In this document: positions 10,844 through 62,143 of the stretch, in pieces
Layout: each line of letters opens with the position of its first letter
Numbering within the stretch: the first letter of the stretch is position 1
Assembly (NCBI RefSeq): GCF_988243305.1
Contig: NZ_OZ547136.1
Length of the DNA stretch: 64,000 nt
Strand: one strand, 5' to 3'
Program-made: the position numbers and the translations under genes
The notes under the pieces: generated by a model
Told to the model about the DNA's origin: nothing
Database searches by the model: none
The model's input: only the letters and a program-made list of their open reading frames with translations

Positions 10844-11602
10844 TTATTTATGCGCAAATAATTGCATTAGTTTTGATATTTTTCTGATAATGATAGCAAT
10901 TTTCCAATTTACATTATGGTTTTTCATAACTTCTACAATTTCCTTTGTACTTGATATCGCGTTATCAATTCTGGTACTTTCCCCACCCAATCTCATCTTT
11001 ACAAATACTTGAGGAACATAAATAACTTTAATATCATCACGTTTCAAAATCCTGACCATCTGATCATAGTCTGCAGCAATCCTATAGGATAAATCAAAAT
11101 ATCCATCGTCTTTATATAATTCCCTCCTCATATAGAAAGATGGATGCGGTGGTGCCCAGCCTAATGATAGCTTAGAACGTTTAAAAGGACCACTACGCCA
11201 GTATCGTTTGATTATATCAATTTGGTTTTTTTCGAAAAAAACCAAATCACCGTATACAACATCCGCTTTTGTCTCATGGAAACGGCTTACAATAGTTTCA
11301 ATAATATCAGGTCTTGCTAAAAGGTCATCAGAATGAACGAATCCAATAATATCTCCCGTAGATAAATTTATACCTTTATTTAAAGCATCATAGATACCGT
11401 TATCGCTTTCTGATAGACATTTGGTTACTCTTGTTGATACTTCGTTAATTAGTTTTAACGTATTATCTGTAGAACCACCATCAATAATTATATACTCTAT
11501 ATCTTTATAGGTTTGCAACTCTATTGACTCTAAAGTATCCCTTAAAGTCTTTTCACTATTATAAGTCACTGTAATAATACTGACTTTCATTTTAACATCC
11601 AA
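10844..11602 (-). CDS. glycosyltransferase, family 2-like
   Basis: 252 aa ORF; N-terminal SIITVTYN...DGGSTD motif typical of GT-A fold; AT-rich; start may be the internal Met at MKVSIIT. Confidence 0.75.
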   Translation of the reverse strand: MDVKMKVSIITVTYNSEKTLRDTLESIELQTYKDIEYIIIDGGSTDNTLKLINEVSTRVTKCLSESDNGIYDALNKGINLSTGDIIGFVHSDDLLARPDIIETIVSRFHETKADVVYGDLVFFEKNQIDIIKRYWRSGPFKRSKLSLGWAPPHPSFYMRRELYKDDGYFDLSYRIAADYDQMVRILKRDDIKVIYVPQVFVKMRLGGESTRIDNAISSTKEIVEVMKNHNVNWKIAIIIRKISKLMQLFAHK

Positions 11603-28639: not shown

Positions 28640-28960
<321 letters not shown>

Positions 28961-33339: not shown

Positions 33340-33550
<211 letters not shown>

Positions 33551-47935: not shown

Positions 47936-48377
47936 GATTTAGCTTAATTTTTAAAACCCTCTCAACATACAGTCGTTGATGAGAAAGGGTTATTGCGGAA
48001 ATTAACTTCCGAATATAAGGTGACATTATGGTAATTGAATATTGGCTCTCCAATAATGCAGGAGGAAGTGTTACAGCTAACGGAATAGCAGGCAAGGTAA
48101 CAATTCGGCAATTGGCTATTTTTAAGAATTATATTAAGTGTCATTCAACATGGTTTTTAGGAGTTTCTTTAGGTTGACAATATTTAATATAGTGTCTCCA
48201 CATGCGATATTTCTTAAATAATGTTTTATTATTACCACTTTTAATTCAGGGATAATGTGAGGTTATAAACCTCAAATAATATGAGATAAATAGTGCTGCA
48301 ACATTGCATTTTTGCCCCGATTTATCCATGATCGAATTGTGACATTTGTCATACAACGAATAGGTTTTGTACTTACT

Positions 48378-49961
48378 ATGGAATGGATTGCCGATCCGTC
48401 TATCTGGGCCGGGTTAATCACGCTGATTGTGATCGAACTGGTCCTCGGCATTGATAACCTGGTCTTTATTGCCATCCTCGCCGAAAAACTACCGCCGAAG
48501 CAGCGCGACCGCGCACGGGTTACCGGGCTGCTGCTGGCGATGTTAATGCGCCTGTTACTGCTGGCGTCAATCTCCTGGCTGGTCACCCTGACACAACCGC
48601 TATTCAGCTTTCGCTCGTTTACCTTTAGCGCCCGCGACTTAATCATGCTGTTTGGTGGTTTCTTCCTGCTGTTCAAAGCCACGATGGAGCTGAACGAACG
48701 GCTGGAAGGGAAAGACAGCAATAACCCCACGCAACGCAAAGGTGCGAAGTTCTGGGGGGTGGTGACACAAATTGTGGTACTGGACGCCATCTTCTCACTC
48801 GACTCGGTGATTACCGCCGTCGGGATGGTCGACCATTTACTGGTCATGATGGCCGCCGTCGTTATCGCTATTAGCCTGATGTTGATGGCCAGCAAGCCGT
48901 TAACGCAATTTGTTAACAGTCACCCGACGATCGTTATTCTCTGCTTAAGCTTCCTGTTGATGATTGGCTTTAGCCTGGTGGCAGAAGGTTTCGGCTTCGT
49001 CATTCCGAAAGGCTACCTGTACGCTGCTATTGGTTTCTCGGTGATGATCGAGGCGCTCAATCAGTTGGCTATCTTTAACCGGCGACGTTTTCTTTCCGCT
49101 AACCAGACACTGCGCCAGCGGACTACCGAAGCGGTAATGCGCCTGCTTAGCGGGCAAAAAGAAGATGCGGAACTGGACGCCGAAACCGCGTCCATGCTGG
49201 TGGATCATGGTAACCAGCAGATCTTTAATCCGCAGGAACGGCGGATGATTGAGCGGGTACTTAATCTTAACCAGCGTACTGTCAGCAGCATTATGACGTC
49301 GCGCCACGATATTGAGCATATCGATCTCAACGCGCCGGAAGAAGAAATCCGCCAGTTGCTGGAGCGAAATCAGCATACGCGGTTGGTGGTTACCGACGGT
49401 GATGACGCAGAAGATTTGCTCGGTGTTGTTCACGTTATCGACCTGCTACAACAGTCACTGCGCGGCGAACCGCTCAACCTGCGGGTGTTGATTCGCCAGC
49501 CGCTGGTGTTCCCGGAAACCTTGCCGTTGTTACCTGCTTTGGAGCAGTTCCGTAATGCCCGCACACACTTTGCTTTTGTGGTGGATGAGTTTGGCTCGGT
49601 GGAAGGGATTGTGACATTAAGTGACGTCACGGAAACTATTGCCGGTAACTTGCCGAACGAAGTGGAAGAGATCGACGCCCGCCATGATATTCAGAAAAAC
49701 GCCGACGGTTCCTGGACGGCGAATGGTCATATGCCACTGGAAGATCTGGTGCAATATGTGCCGCTACCGCTGGATGAGAAACGCGAATATCACACCATTG
49801 CCGGGCTGCTGATGGAATATTTGCAGCGTATTCCAAAACCTGGCGAAGAAGTTCAGGTGGGGGATTATTTGCTTAAAACGTTGCAGGTGGAAAGCCATCG
49901 CGTGCAGAAGGTGCAGATTATACCGCTGCGTAAGGATGGCGAGATGGAGTACGAGGTGTGA
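48378..49961 (+). CDS. yegH: inner membrane protein with TerC-family membrane domain and CBS / CorC-HlyC C-terminal domains
   Basis: ORF 48312-49961; start set at [10 protein letters not shown] (ATG at 48378) to give 527 aa; domain call from recollection and hydrophobic N-terminal half. Confidence 0.8.
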
Positions 49962-50179
49962 TGGTATCGCCATTTTACCCGATGCTGCGTAACGCCTTAT
50001 AACTTCAGCAATGAAGCGATGTCTGTGGTACATGGACATCACAGCGGGGGTGTGGGTCCGGGTTGCCAGGGTGGTGGAGATTGAGCCACCCTGGCACGTT
50101 CACCGGCTTGAGCGTTCCATAGTAGCGAGGAACATCAAGTGAACGGAACAGCCTTCGATCTTACATATTCAGAATATAA

Positions 50180-50245
50180 TGGTGCCGCCACGAACGCCTG
50201 ATGCGACGCTTTACGCGTCTTATCAGGCCTACAGGACAGGTCACC
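50180..50245. repeat. REP element between convergent yegH and asmA
   Basis: gcctgatgcgacgctttacgcgtcttatcaggcctacagg palindromic unit. Confidence 0.8.
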
Positions 50246-50252
50246 TGGTAAA

Positions 50253-52106
50253 CTACATCTTCTCCAGCAACTTCTTCACATCTTTGCCATTGCGGGAATC
50301 TTTATTCCGCTCGGCCCAGTCATTCAGGCGACGTTTCGCTTCGTCCTGTAGATGTTTGCGCAGCAGCTGGTCCACTTGCAGGCTGTAATTGAGTTGCTGC
50401 CAGTTGCCATAAACCCGCAGCGGTACTGGCGTTTCTTTGAGGAAATCAATCAGTTTGCTTTCTCCGTTCCATCCACCCACGACCCGAATATCAAACTGGG
50501 TGTCGCAGGTTTGCTCCGCCAGATTCAACGTACCAGCCCCGGAAAGCGCCAGCACAGGCGATTGACCTTGCATGTCGTTTAACGTCACGACGCCATCCTT
50601 CAACGTCAAATAGGTGGTAAAGCGGTCAAGACGCGTCACGTTATCGAAGTTTTCAGCGGCCTTCACATCACCACCATTACGTTCTACCGCTTGCTGAATC
50701 ATCTGCTGGAAGTTCATCCCTTCCATGCGTGTGTCGGTCATTTCGACATGTGCCTGTCCTTGCCAGTTGTGGCGGAATGCGTCGGCATCTATGTCAGCAC
50801 CGGAGAAATCACCAGCCAGTGACATCTTTCCGGTCAACGAAATCGGATAGTTAAACGCCTTCAGAATGGTGCCTATCTCAACGTTTTCCAGCCGTGGCTG
50901 GAAGTTTATCCGCGGATTTATTGATGTCGCGTCCAGCGTGCCCGGCAGTGAAACCTGTCCACCGTTAAGCTTGCCCTGCAGTTGAGTAATTTCCAGCAAA
51001 CCCGACTTGTTGGTCATTTGCGTGGCAACATCTGTAAAATTCATTCCGCGCCAGCGCACGTTACTGGCCTGCAACAAAATATCAGCCGTAAAGCCTTGCA
51101 GTCCCTGATAGGCCGGTTCATCAATACGCGAAGAAATGACCGGGCGCGGCAACGTTGATTGGCTCTGCCCCTGCTGCGCGGCACCGTTTTCACCGTTCGC
51201 TGTTTCATTAAGCGGGATGAGGTTGTCAAGATTCAGTTGCGGGAATTGCAGTCTCAGCTGCCATTCCGGTTTCTCTGTCAACGTGACCTGTGCTTGCCCG
51301 CTCAGCGTACTGTCATTGGCGGTCAAACTAATTTGGTTAAATGAAAGGCGTTTATGTGACTCCTGCCACTGGGCCTGGAAACTCCCCTGCCCCTGAATAC
51401 CTTGTTTTGGTAAATCTGCACCCTGCAACTGCCAGTTAATTTGTTCAATAGCCGCCGTTAAATCATGCGGATAATCAGAAGCATCTACCGTACCGTTAAG
51501 GGATATCGTGAGATCGCGCTGATCGCGATTAACCCGCCCGGAGAACTCAAATGAGCCACGATGTTGGGGATCTTGTTCCATTTGCAGACGGATATTGCGG
51601 ATTGTCACCTGCTCGTCATCTTCATGCTGGAACACCAGCACGCTGTCCGCCACCTTAAGACTGGATATATCAAACGACCATCCGCGATCGTCTGACAGAT
51701 CCGGCAAGGTATTGTCGCGCGGTGCAACCGGAGCGTCTTCACTGCGCACCGCTTCCGTCTGCGGCGTCAGTTGGATCACTGCCCCTTTTAGCATCACCTG
51801 CTTAACGCTCAGTTGATGACTCAGTAGTGGTAAAAGCGCCACGTCCAGACGCATGTTGTCGGCGCGAACCAGTGGCTGGCTCGCGCCCTGGGCGGTGAGA
51901 GACATTCGCCCGGAGAGGATACTAAGCTGCGGCCAGACGTGCCAACGCAGTGGCCCGTCGAGCTGCAATTGATAACCGCTACGTGCAGCAACTTGCTTGA
52001 CCATATAGTCGCGGAAATCATTCGGATTCACCAGCAACACTAACGCAGATAACCCGGCCACCAGCACGACCAGGAGTATCATCAGCGTCGTCAGAAATCG
52101 TCTCAT
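50253..52106 (-). CDS. asmA: AsmA, outer membrane assembly / lipid transport family protein
   Basis: 617 aa ORF with N-terminal TM anchor, conserved position upstream of dcd. Confidence 0.88.
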   Translation of the reverse strand: MRRFLTTLMILLVVLVAGLSALVLLVNPNDFRDYMVKQVAARSGYQLQLDGPLRWHVWPQLSILSGRMSLTAQGASQPLVRADNMRLDVALLPLLSHQLSVKQVMLKGAVIQLTPQTEAVRSEDAPVAPRDNTLPDLSDDRGWSFDISSLKVADSVLVFQHEDDEQVTIRNIRLQMEQDPQHRGSFEFSGRVNRDQRDLTISLNGTVDASDYPHDLTAAIEQINWQLQGADLPKQGIQGQGSFQAQWQESHKRLSFNQISLTANDSTLSGQAQVTLTEKPEWQLRLQFPQLNLDNLIPLNETANGENGAAQQGQSQSTLPRPVISSRIDEPAYQGLQGFTADILLQASNVRWRGMNFTDVATQMTNKSGLLEITQLQGKLNGGQVSLPGTLDATSINPRINFQPRLENVEIGTILKAFNYPISLTGKMSLAGDFSGADIDADAFRHNWQGQAHVEMTDTRMEGMNFQQMIQQAVERNGGDVKAAENFDNVTRLDRFTTYLTLKDGVVTLNDMQGQSPVLALSGAGTLNLAEQTCDTQFDIRVVGGWNGESKLIDFLKETPVPLRVYGNWQQLNYSLQVDQLLRKHLQDEAKRRLNDWAERNKDSRNGKDVKKLLEKM

Positions 52107-53759: not shown

Positions 53760-56700
53760 ATGAGCAAACAATCACAGCATGTATTAATTGCCCTGCCCCA
53801 CCCGCTGCTTCACCTGGTCAGTTTAGGTTTAGTCTCGTTTATCTTTACCCTTTTCTCGCTTGAGCTTTCGCAGTTTGGCACCCAACTCGCCCCACTGTGG
53901 TTCCCGACGTCCATCATGATGGTGGCGTTTTATCGCCATGCCGGGCGTATGTGGCCGGGGATTGCGCTGAGCTGCTCACTGGGAAATATCGCCGCATCCA
54001 TCCTGCTTTTTTCCACCAGCTCGCTGAACATGACCTGGACGACCATCAATATTGTTGAAGCCGTGGTCGGGGCAGTGCTACTGCGTAAATTGCTGCCGTG
54101 GTATAACCCATTGCAAAATCTGGCTGACTGGCTGCGTCTGGCACTCGGCAGCGCCATTGTTCCGCCTCTGTTGGGGGGTGTTCTGGTTATCCTGCTGACG
54201 CCCGGAGACGATCCTCTCAGGGCATTTTTGATATGGGTACTGTCAGAATCCATCGGCGCACTGGCACTGGTGCCACTGGGATTGTTATTTAAACCACACT
54301 ATCTGCTGCGCCATCGCAACCCAAGGTTGCTTTTTGAGTCGCTGCTCACGTTAGCCATCACACTGACGTTAAGCTGGCTTTCGATGCTGTATCTGCCGTG
54401 GCCTTTTACTTTCATTATTGTGCTGTTGATGTGGAGCGCCGTGCGCCTGCCACGAATGGAAGCCTTTTTGATCTTCCTTACCACGGTGATGATGGTGTCA
54501 CTGATGATGGCCGCGGATCCCTCCCTGCTTGCTACGCCGCGTACATACCTGATGAGCCATATGCCGTGGCTACCGTTTTTGCTGATCCTGCTGCCCGCCA
54601 ACATCATGACCATGGTGATGTATGCCTTTCGTGCGGAACGCAAACACATTTCCGAAAGCGAAACCCGCTTTCGGAACGCGATGGAATATTCCGCTATCGG
54701 TATGGCGTTAGTGGGCACCGAGGGACAATGGCTGCAATCCAACAAAGCACTCTGCCAGTTTCTCGGTTACAGTCAGGAAGAGCTGCGCGGACTCACCTTT
54801 CAGCAACTGACCTGGCCGGAGGATCTCAATAAAGATCTGCAACAGGTTGAAAAGCTGATCAGCGGTGAAATAAACACCTATTCAATGGAAAAACGCTACT
54901 ACAACCGCAATGGCGATGTTGTCTGGGCGTTGCTTGCCGTCTCACTGGTGCGCCACACGGATGGCACGCCGCTCTATTTTATCGCTCAGATTGAAGACAT
55001 TAACGAGCTAAAACGCACCGAACAGGTGAATCAGCAACTGATGGAGCGCATCACGCTGGCTAACGAAGCGGGCGGGATTGGCATCTGGGAGTGGGAGCTT
55101 AAGCCGAATATTTTTAGCTGGGATAAGCGGATGTTCGAGCTGTATGAAATTCCTCCGCATATCAAACCGAACTGGCAGGTGTGGTACGAGTGCGTGCTGC
55201 CGGAAGATCGCCAGCATGCCGAAAAAGTGATTCGTGATTCGTTGCAATCACGCTCTCCCTTTAAACTGGAATTTCGCATTACCGTGAAAGACGGCATTCG
55301 CCATATCCGCGCCCTCGCTAACCGGGTACTGAATAAAGAAGGCGAAGTCGAACGCCTGCTCGGCATTAATATGGATATGACCGAGGTAAAACAGCTTAAC
55401 GAGGCATTGTTTCAGGAAAAAGAGCGCCTGCACATTACGCTGGATTCCATCGGCGAAGCCGTGGTCTGTATTGATATGGCAATGAAAATTACCTTTATGA
55501 ATCCGGTGGCGGAGAAGATGAGCGGCTGGACGCAGGAAGAAGCGTTAGGTGTTCCACTCCTGACGGTGTTGCATATTACTTTTGGCGACAACGGACCATT
55601 AATGGAGAACATTTACAGTGCCGACACCTCACGTTCCGCGATTGAACAAGATGTGGTGTTGCACTGCCGAAGCGGCGGCAGCTACGACGTGCATTACAGT
55701 ATTACGCCGTTAAGTACTCTGGACGGCAGCAATATTGGTTCGGTTCTGGTGATTCAGGACGTCACCGAATCGCGCAAAATGCTGCGCCAGCTGAGCTACA
55801 GCGCCTCCCATGATGCACTGACGCATCTCGCCAATCGCGCCAGTTTTGAGAAGCAACTACGCATCCTGCTGCAAACGGTAAACAGTACACATCAGCGACA
55901 TGCACTGGTGTTTATCGATCTTGATCGCTTTAAAGCGGTGAATGACAGCGCCGGGCACGCCGCTGGCGACGCTTTACTGCGCGAACTGGCGTCATTGATG
56001 CTGAGTATGCTGCGCTCCAGCGACGTGCTGGCGCGACTCGGTGGCGATGAATTTGGTCTGCTGCTGCCAGATTGTAATGTCGAAAGTGCGCGTTTTATCG
56101 CTACACGCATTATCAGCGCCGTGAATGACTATCACTTTATCTGGGAAGGACGTGTACATCGGGTAGGTGCCAGTGCCGGGATTACCTTGATTGATGACAA
56201 CAATCATCAGGCGGCTGAAGTGATGTCGCAGGCTGATATCGCCTGTTATGCCTCCAAAAATGGTGGCCGGGGCCGGGTGACGATTTACGAACCGCAGCAA
56301 GCTGCCGCACATAGCGAACGGGCGGCGATGTCGCTTGATGAACAGTGGCGGATGATTAAAGAGAATCAGTTGATGATGATCGCCCACGGTGTCGCTTCGC
56401 CGCGGATCCCGCAAGCGCGTAATTTGTGGCTGATTTCACTTAAGCTCTGGAGTTGCGAAGGCGAGATTATTGATGAACAAACATTTCGTCGTAGCTTCAG
56501 CGATCCGGCACTTAGCCATGCTCTTGACCGACGGGTATTCCACGATTTTTTCCAGCAGGCCGCCAAAGCGGTTGCCAGTAAAGGTATAAGCATCGCCCTC
56601 CCGCTTTCCGTTGCCGGTTTGAGTAGCGCCACGCTGGTGAATGAACTAATTGAGCAGCTGGAAAATAGCCCTCTACCACCACGGTTATTACATCTGATTA

Positions 56701-62079: not shown

Positions 62080-62143
62080 CCAGCCATTATATTGATTGCT
62101 TAAACTGGCGGTTGAACTGTTGTCTTCAACCGCCATGCGATGT

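Follow-up and report, generated by a model that had tools for sequence, protein, structure and literature searches.

The perfect inverted repeat that follows yegH in the 64,000-nt stretch of DNA analysed here (the window) is probably helix H4 from a structured element, surviving in a decayed copy. The element most likely functions as RNA, and its copy in the window would persist as a relic. The complete element is about 275 nt long, is spread through E. coli and its relatives, and is unannotated.

An inverted repeat between yegH and asmA

In the window, yegH (TerC family; 48312..49961, + strand, from the open reading frame list with its start codon as called) and asmA (50253..52106, − strand) converge on a spacer of 291 bp, lying between open reading frame ends at 49961 (+) and 50253 (−). 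Both gene names follow the RefSeq annotation of near-identical E. coli. Within this spacer, an earlier note had described a perfect 10-bp inverted repeat with an 11-nt loop at 50065–50095, about 100 nt after the yegH stop. The letters bear this description out and extend it by one T-A pair. The repeat occupies 50064–50096 (TGCCAGGGTGG-TGGAGATTGAG-CCACCCTGGCA), with arms of 11 bp at 50064–50074 and 50086–50096 and an 11-nt loop at 50075–50085 (UGGAGAUUGAG). Its 5′ edge lies 102 nt past the yegH stop (49961), and the asmA stop is 157 nt away.

The inverted repeat is far beyond chance. The window holds four perfect inverted repeats of at least 11 bp with loops of 3–20 nt, compared with a mean of 0.18 per window and a maximum of 2 across 100 dinucleotide shuffles. 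The three others are found at 11220–11247 (ATTTGGTTTTTTTCGAAAAAAACCAAAT), 54650–54676 (TTCCGAAAGCG..CGCTTTCGGAA), and 62106–62135 (TGGCGGTTGAA..TTCAACCGCCA). The fold prediction that the earlier note had proposed gives −28.4 kcal/mol for the hairpin as RNA (z = −3.05), and the stem is predicted to be strong on both strands. As the note had also held, this is not a classical intrinsic terminator: a T-run after the stem is absent on both strands (flanks CGTTCACC on + and ACCCGGAC on −), and a scan for intrinsic terminators across 49800–50400 returned 0 sites. The hairpin region has no match in Rfam, and Rfam scans of the whole window spacer gave REP-like matches only, as did those of the corresponding spacer of another E. 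coli genome, ECO11.

The spacer also contains a REP-type palindrome by the asmA stop (50193..50229, no strand assigned; naRNA4/REP-like match of 33.1 bits, sub-threshold). The hairpin had been described as separate from this REP, and we agree: the REP-like palindrome itself is at 50196–50228, the REP-like match is confined to 50157–50229, and the REP of the spacer is a separate repeat family rather than part of the element described below. Two further REP-like clusters, at 28660–28891 and 33361–33485, match the spacer REP at 90–95% and sit within the long minus-strand gene run upstream of yegH.

A conserved fold in two domains

To describe the fold of the family, we aligned 99 distinct copies with MAFFT (alignment A4) and derived a consensus with RNAalifold. 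The pattern used to retrieve these copies constrained nothing beyond the H1 loop and the beginning of the 5′ core; since it left H2, H4, and H5 free, the results for these helices are not circular. In the 5′ domain, two hairpins lie side by side, H1 (loop CA(U/G)GGAUG) and H2 (loop CA(G/U)GGA(U/C)G), enclosed by a long closing helix that has interruptions and whose 3′ strand also bears a short hairpin. The 3′ domain comprises H4 (11–12 bp, with a G-rich 5′ arm and a loop that usually starts GGCG across the family), a single base, and then H5 (7 bp; CGYUCMC...GKGARCG).

This pairing is strongly conserved. Standard pairs occupy 95.9% of cells, versus 38–44% when partners are slid by 1–3 columns. 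Changes on both sides occur at 38 of the 70 pairs, and the covariation score of the alignment was reached by none of 500 shuffles. Helices 1–8, which belong to the closing helix (P1), covary. The GGA of the H2 loop is invariant (99/99 copies), though unconstrained by the search pattern. H5 (helix 15 of the consensus) is paired in 99.4% of cells and has three covarying pairs, with forms such as CGUUCAC/GUGAACG versus CGCUCC/GGAGCG. For H4, conservation across Enterobacteriaceae had been put forward as a check on the inverted repeat, and the pairing is indeed kept, with compensatory changes at 9 of the 11 pairs. Examples of its arms are CCAGGGUGG/CCACCCUGG, CAGGGGGCGGC/GCCGCCCCCUG, GGGGGAGGA/UCCUCCCCC, UAAAGGGCG/CGCCCUUUA, and UUAAGGGUAC/GUACCCUUAA. 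Conserved H4 pairing of this kind points to a single-stranded (RNA-type) stem rather than to a sequence-specific DNA site.

The alignment also indicates which strand is folded. G-U cells number 212, compared with 34 A-C cells, and this excess implies that the fold belongs to one strand, which in the window is co-linear with yegH. Since the fold is preserved for one strand, we consider it most likely that the element acts as RNA. Covariation among paralogous copies could nonetheless reflect a requirement for single-stranded DNA rather than RNA.

A few copies depart from this common architecture. Four of them (L045, L114, L117, and L120) carry an insertion of ~75 nt in the 3′ strand of the closing helix, which forms a third hairpin with an AYGGAY loop (CCCCAUGGAUGGGG) and suggests modular gain of GGA hairpins. 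Three Atlantibacter copies (L071, L072, and L073) carry one to three tandem CGAACGGAACAATTCCAC units after H5, repeating the 3′ tail of the element.

The window holds a truncated copy

We built a covariance model of the 3′ domain (R1) on 41 copies drawn from other loci and other genera; the yegH locus contributed none. In the 64-kb window, R1 has a single match, at 50060–50150, scoring 82.2 bits (E 6.3e-21) and covering model positions 1–90 of 90. The same model also finds the K-12 copies at yegH, lysO-aqpZ, and putP-efeU. The window copy therefore has the complete 3′ domain of the family (H4 + H5; 50060..50150, + strand), and it falls short of a complete copy because its 5′ domain is deleted. 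In the alignment to the covariance model, the inverted repeat takes the place of H4 (+ strand; helices 13 and 14 of the consensus). Judged by these matches, we identify the window hairpin as H4 of a truncated copy of the dispersed element. The stem-loop that the earlier note placed after yegH is real, with conserved pairing, but it is H4 of a multi-copy element of ~275 nt and not a feature of yegH.

Other parts of the element can be recognized on either side. A 5′ flank and leader remnant (50013..50059, + strand; GAAGCGATGTCTGTGG...ACAGCGGGGGTGTGGGTCC) shares homology with the left internal portion of full copies. Downstream of H4, helix H5 (50097..50145, + strand) is formed by pairing of CGTTCAC (50097–50103) with GTGAACG (50139–50145); it has an inner stem, GTTCC/GGAAC, and also appears in the single-sequence fold. 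After H5 comes a 3′ tail of the element (50146..50170, + strand; GAACAGCCTTCGATCTTACATATTC), where homology to full copies stops. Coding potential in the spacer was considered and rejected, as neither a 43-aa open reading frame in the window (50011–50142) nor a 102-aa frame in ECO11 is conserved; the ATG that follows an AAGGA motif is replaced by CTG or TCG elsewhere in the family.

Alleles and decay at the yegH-asmA locus

An alignment of this spacer from several E. coli genomes reveals how the window copy was truncated. The ECO11 spacer measures 451 bp and has the full form. The window allele equals the ECO11 form minus 160 bp, with the joint at 50058..50063 (no strand assigned), just 5′ of the hairpin. 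The end-points of this deletion fall at the foot of the long helix, in CCGG / C(C/T)GG microhomology, and the missing segment held the closing helix and both AYGGAY hairpins. K-12 and WP7 lack another, partly overlapping segment of ~200 bp, bounded by ACCC(A/G)AT repeats. Among 5426 complete E. coli genomes, ~1425 have the full form (counted as matches covering at least 80% of the query) and 357 have the window joint (counted by the presence of a joint-spanning 70-mer), with the remaining genomes mostly having the K-12-type allele. Even the "full" ECO11 allele is already without the GGA of its second loop, H2 (CAGUGAUG).

A comparable loss is found at another K-12 locus. The copy between putP and efeU (L018 105–195) has lost ~102 bp, including both AYGGAY hairpins, and has kept H4 and H5, scoring 67.3 bits with R1. 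We had considered this locus as an empty site from which the ends of the element might be defined; it is instead an internally deleted copy. The three independent deletions (window yegH, K-12 yegH, and K-12 putP-efeU) all spared H4 and H5. In the simplest reading, the 5′ domain, being a long palindrome, promotes slippage between the short repeats at its foot and is deleted in this way, though the survival of H4 and H5 in all three could mean that the 3′ domain is retained by selection, which would speak against a pure relic. The copy between yegH and asmA is an old one that is decaying differently by E. coli lineage.

In two loci from divergent Escherichia (L065 and L128), where the yegH 3′ end is ~85% identical, the element and REP are reversed relative to E. 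coli, and REPs flank both sides. This arrangement suggests either that the spacer was inverted between its REPs or that the element inserted independently.

Copies and genomic setting of the element

By sensitive BLAST, the ECO11 spacer matches a median of 3 and up to 10 places per E. coli genome, at 78–87% identity, and also matches Klebsiella and Citrobacter. Other sites in E. coli include the tauA-mmuM, proX-ygaY, efeU-putP, lysO-aqpZ, and yohP-dusC spacers. Nothing is annotated under the matches in RefSeq E. coli genomes, and the MG1655 record has no annotation in those spacers. A genome scan with a pattern for the conserved core recovered at least 120 loci from at least nine enterobacterial genera; the genera among the matches listed are Citrobacter, Enterobacter, Klebsiella, Kluyvera, Lelliottia, Atlantibacter, Silvania, Pseudocitrobacter, and Escherichia. 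An H4-like hairpin adjoins the AYGGAY core in about 97 of 115 copies. The scan also returned a few apparent chance matches in unrelated phyla and eight loci on viral contigs. A phage origin was considered and rejected, the ECO11 spacer having no BLAST match in 50,697 phage records. Matches to plasmids are mostly chromosomes mislabelled as plasmids.

We next asked where these copies lie relative to genes, using crude open reading frame calls at 62 loci. Of these settings, 29 are convergent, 17 co-directional with the element in sense, 12 co-directional in antisense, and 4 divergent. Copies are thus enriched between convergent genes, and in 46 of the 62 loci they are found ~100 nt downstream of a co-oriented gene. 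The element thus avoids promoter regions and, like mobile extragenic repeats, has no preferred orientation, which argues against a cis-regulatory role tied to particular genes. Scans of two representative copies for a sigma-70 consensus promoter and for an intrinsic terminator found neither.

An intact copy is present in E. coli K-12. In MG1655 it lies between lysO and aqpZ, on the + strand at ~915,014–915,284 of NC_000913.3 (L017 ~215–485), antisense to the 3′ region of aqpZ and unannotated. Taken alone, this copy folds into the consensus structure (−143.8 kcal/mol, z −5.5). The lysO-aqpZ copy is present in 5341 of 5426 E. coli genomes.

Two copies lie close to known small RNA genes. A cluster resembling C4 antisense RNA, c4-a1b1, and isrK (prophage-type; L032 750–949) is found ~100–200 nt from an Enterobacter copy, and one Citrobacter copy has a GlmY gene (L029 3933–4080) ~350 nt downstream. 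In both cases the proximity is probably a coincidence.

A MITE form with IS4-type ends

In one subfamily, conservation extends beyond the RNA-like core. This MITE form is found in Enterobacter, Lelliottia, and Silvania and, rarely, in the E. coli tauA-mmuM spacer (examples are L005 1422–1847, L107, L061, L043, and L112). It is bounded by terminal inverted repeats of ~22 bp (CTGAGGGATCCCCAGTAAT...), with CTGAGGGATCCCCAGTAATTTTTT at the left end and ATTATTTTGTGGGGATCCCTCAG at the right, and has no transposase. Among the 21 copies in which both ends are present, 19 measure 424–428 bp, the others being 306 and 499 bp. The flanking 9-mers are identical at 8 or more of their 9 positions in 9 of these 21 copies (e.g. 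CCCGGCAGG, CCCTGTGGG, CCCACAGGG, and CCCCGTGGG). By these features, 21 copies in other genera and the E. coli tauA-mmuM copy qualify as IS4-family-derived MITEs. The insertion targets are the centres of BoxC-like palindromes (TCTCCC-NNN-GGGAGA), and the interior of the MITE itself holds a BoxC-like hairpin 3′ of H5. In E. coli the complete MITE is rare, with 18 genomes out of 5426 carrying it.

A candidate for the autonomous partner of this MITE interrupts one of the copies. At L147 954–2254 we found a 1301-bp insertion sequence that encodes an IS4-family transposase (NF033591, 362.8 bits; PF01609). Its ends are CTGAGGAATCCCCAGAAAAC and TTTTGTGGGGATCCCTCAG, the latter identical to the right end of the MITE, and this sequence similarity makes it a putative source of transposase. 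It interrupts the 5′ arm of H4, and its flanks show no clean 9-bp duplication. Target duplications of 9 bp are characteristic of IS10. Together, the matching IS ends, the 9-bp duplications, and the uniform size mark the subfamily as a MITE, presumably mobilisable by an IS10-like transposase, with the structured module as its cargo.

The module is also found outside this vehicle. The lysO-aqpZ type of copy in E. coli and the copies of Klebsiella and Citrobacter have other flanks, which suggests that the module is older than, or independent of, the MITE. At yegH, no left end can be made out and the right one is lacking; the window copy has neither the BoxC-like hairpin nor the right terminal repeat of the MITE form. 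Judging from the other subfamilies, the yegH copy may have arrived by a MITE-like route.

Insertion sequences have independently entered other copies, two of them exactly within the H4 loop (L047, after GGCGATTG; L143, after GGCGGC) and one in the 5′ domain (L136); these insertions include one that is IS3-like and one that is IS110-like. We considered and rejected the idea that H4 is an attachment site for integrating elements, as the interruptions are ordinary insertion sequences (IS3-like, IS4-family) and not integrase-borne islands.

Likeness to known systems

Within Rfam, the 5′ domain matches a single family, TwoAYGGAY (RF01731, clan CL00106), repeatedly and at 28–33 bits. The best intact copies score 28.4–33.4 bits, and none reaches the TwoAYGGAY gathering score of 43. 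The same search found no match in the window or in the ECO11 yegH allele. TwoAYGGAY was described as having two AYGGAY terminal loops and often a very large P1, with sequences from human gut metagenomes, Clostridia, and gamma-proteobacteria, and was considered probably RNA and not cis-regulatory (Weinberg et al. 2010, PMC2864571). Binding by CsrA has been predicted for it from the loop motifs (Gardner & Eldai 2015, PMC4333381), and its clan also contains PrrB/RsmZ. Like TwoAYGGAY, the 5′ domain of our family has a large closing P1 around two adjacent AYGGAY hairpins, and both are multi-copy within a genome, as illustrated by the gamma-proteobacterial TwoAYGGAY seed sequences of Psychromonas ingrahamii. 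Unlike it, our family is sub-threshold and GC-rich and has an extra conserved 3′ domain (H4 + H5) that lies outside the Rfam model; the window copy, moreover, has no AYGGAY part. Given the sub-threshold scores and the extra 3′ domain, we treat the family as a variant of TwoAYGGAY and not as a member.

The element also resembles the CsrB/CsrC and Rsm sponge RNAs in presenting GGA in hairpin loops, and TwoAYGGAY belongs to the same Rfam clan. The CsrA SELEX consensus is RUACARGGAUGU, and two of the element loops, ACAUGGAUGU and ACAGGGAUGU, resemble it; from their sequence, the AYGGAY loops look like high-affinity CsrA sites. In contrast to those sponges, however, the element carries 2–4 GGA motifs rather than about 9–22, and it is multi-copy and mobile. 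This likeness holds for the intact element, and none of it applies to the window relic.

Three classes of repeat offer partial parallels. Like IS4/IS10-type MITEs, the MITE form is a uniform unit with terminal inverted repeats, 9-bp duplications, and no transposase; its interior, however, is a covarying structured module rather than a deleted transposase gene, and the module also occurs without these terminal repeats. Like REP and BIME sequences, the element comprises GC-rich extragenic palindromes that lie after stops and between convergent genes. REP stem-loops protect upstream mRNA, and the element could do the same, yet it is unrelated to REP in sequence, and H4 belongs to a larger structure that is asymmetric. 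BoxC palindromes (CCCTCTCCC..GGGAGAGGG..GGGTGAGGG) serve as insertion targets of the MITE, and one is found inside it, but the window hairpin is not BoxC and the yegH copy has no BoxC-like part.

In the literature that could be searched, we located no transcriptome or CsrA-binding data for the element and found no description of it, although an earlier one under another name (e.g. the E. coli 'RSA' repeat) is possible.

Origin and possible roles of the hairpin

The analysis shows directly that the hairpin belongs to the family, that pairing is conserved, that the 5′ domain was deleted, how frequent the alleles are, and that the MITE form has terminal repeats and target duplications. In the history that we propose, the structured module would have travelled, in part at least, inside a 426-bp MITE bounded by IS4-family terminal repeats, and the yegH-asmA spacer would have received a copy long ago that is now decaying. 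In the window, a 160-bp deletion, with its ends in short repeats at the foot of the long helix, removed the 5′ domain and left the leader, H4, H5, and a short tail. The intact element may bind CsrA or a similar protein. The relic in the window, by contrast, would have no dedicated function and would exert at most a generic stem-loop effect on the 3′ ends of yegH and asmA.

The hairpin might instead be a functional 3′-UTR element of yegH or asmA that blocks exonucleases or marks a site of RNase processing, perhaps co-opted from the decayed repeat. A stem of −28.4 kcal/mol that is strong on either strand, 102 nt past one stop and 157 nt past the other, would suit such a role. So would the retention of H4 and H5 in three E. 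coli alleles and in the K-12 putP-efeU relic, all of which have lost other parts, and the prevalence across the family of positions ~100 nt downstream of a co-oriented gene (46/62 loci) and of convergent spacers (29/62). Nothing ties the hairpin specifically to yegH, however, since the same helix recurs across dozens of spacers that are unrelated to one another and takes either orientation (in co-directional spacers, 17 sense versus 12 antisense). Furthermore, three deletions are too few to argue for selection, and the palindromic 5′ domain is intrinsically prone to deletion. We regard a dedicated 3′-UTR function as unlikely.

A broader version of this idea concerns the family as a whole, which could be a mobile, MITE-borne TwoAYGGAY RNA that titrates CsrA or another RNA-binding protein, with H4 and H5 separately useful for RNA stability or as an insulator between convergent genes, and with the window hairpin co-opted to that end. 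Taken together, this combination seems to us distinctly unlikely.

It is quite improbable that the hairpin acts as a non-canonical bidirectional terminator or roadblock between yegH and asmA. Its perfect, GC-rich symmetry and its place between convergent genes would suit that role, as would its ability to form on both strands, but neither strand has a U-tract and the terminator scan was empty. In intact members, moreover, H4 is internal, followed by H5 and conserved sequence, and does not mark a 3′ end.

The earlier note had also raised the possibility of a protein-binding site. A double-stranded DNA palindrome bound by a dimeric protein, whether an operator or a recombinase site, would account for the perfect dyad symmetry and perhaps for the insertion sequences found in or beside the H4 loop in three copies (L047, L143, and L147). 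Yet the arms vary freely between copies while their pairing persists (compare CCAGGGUGG, CAGGGGGCGGC, UAAAGGGCG, and UUAAGGGUAC), G-U pairs are tolerated on one strand only, and no neighbouring gene or regulator is conserved, which together make such a site highly improbable. Finally, a chance palindrome without history, which has only the small size of the repeat in its favour, is refuted by the 0.18 repeats expected per window, the R1 match (E 6e-21), and homology to more than 100 copies.

For the window, the preferred reading, that the hairpin is probably H4 of a decayed copy, is deflationary: what follows yegH is a fragment of a repeat and, short of experimental support, should not be annotated as a regulatory signal of that gene. 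The family is a more interesting object than the window hairpin. It is apparently unannotated, with no annotation in RefSeq E. coli or MG1655 and scores below the Rfam threshold, and it joins an orphan candidate CsrA-binding motif from 2010, an IS4-type MITE, and BoxC repeats as insertion target. Because K-12 carries an intact copy between lysO and aqpZ, the function of a TwoAYGGAY-type RNA is directly testable in the best-equipped model organism.
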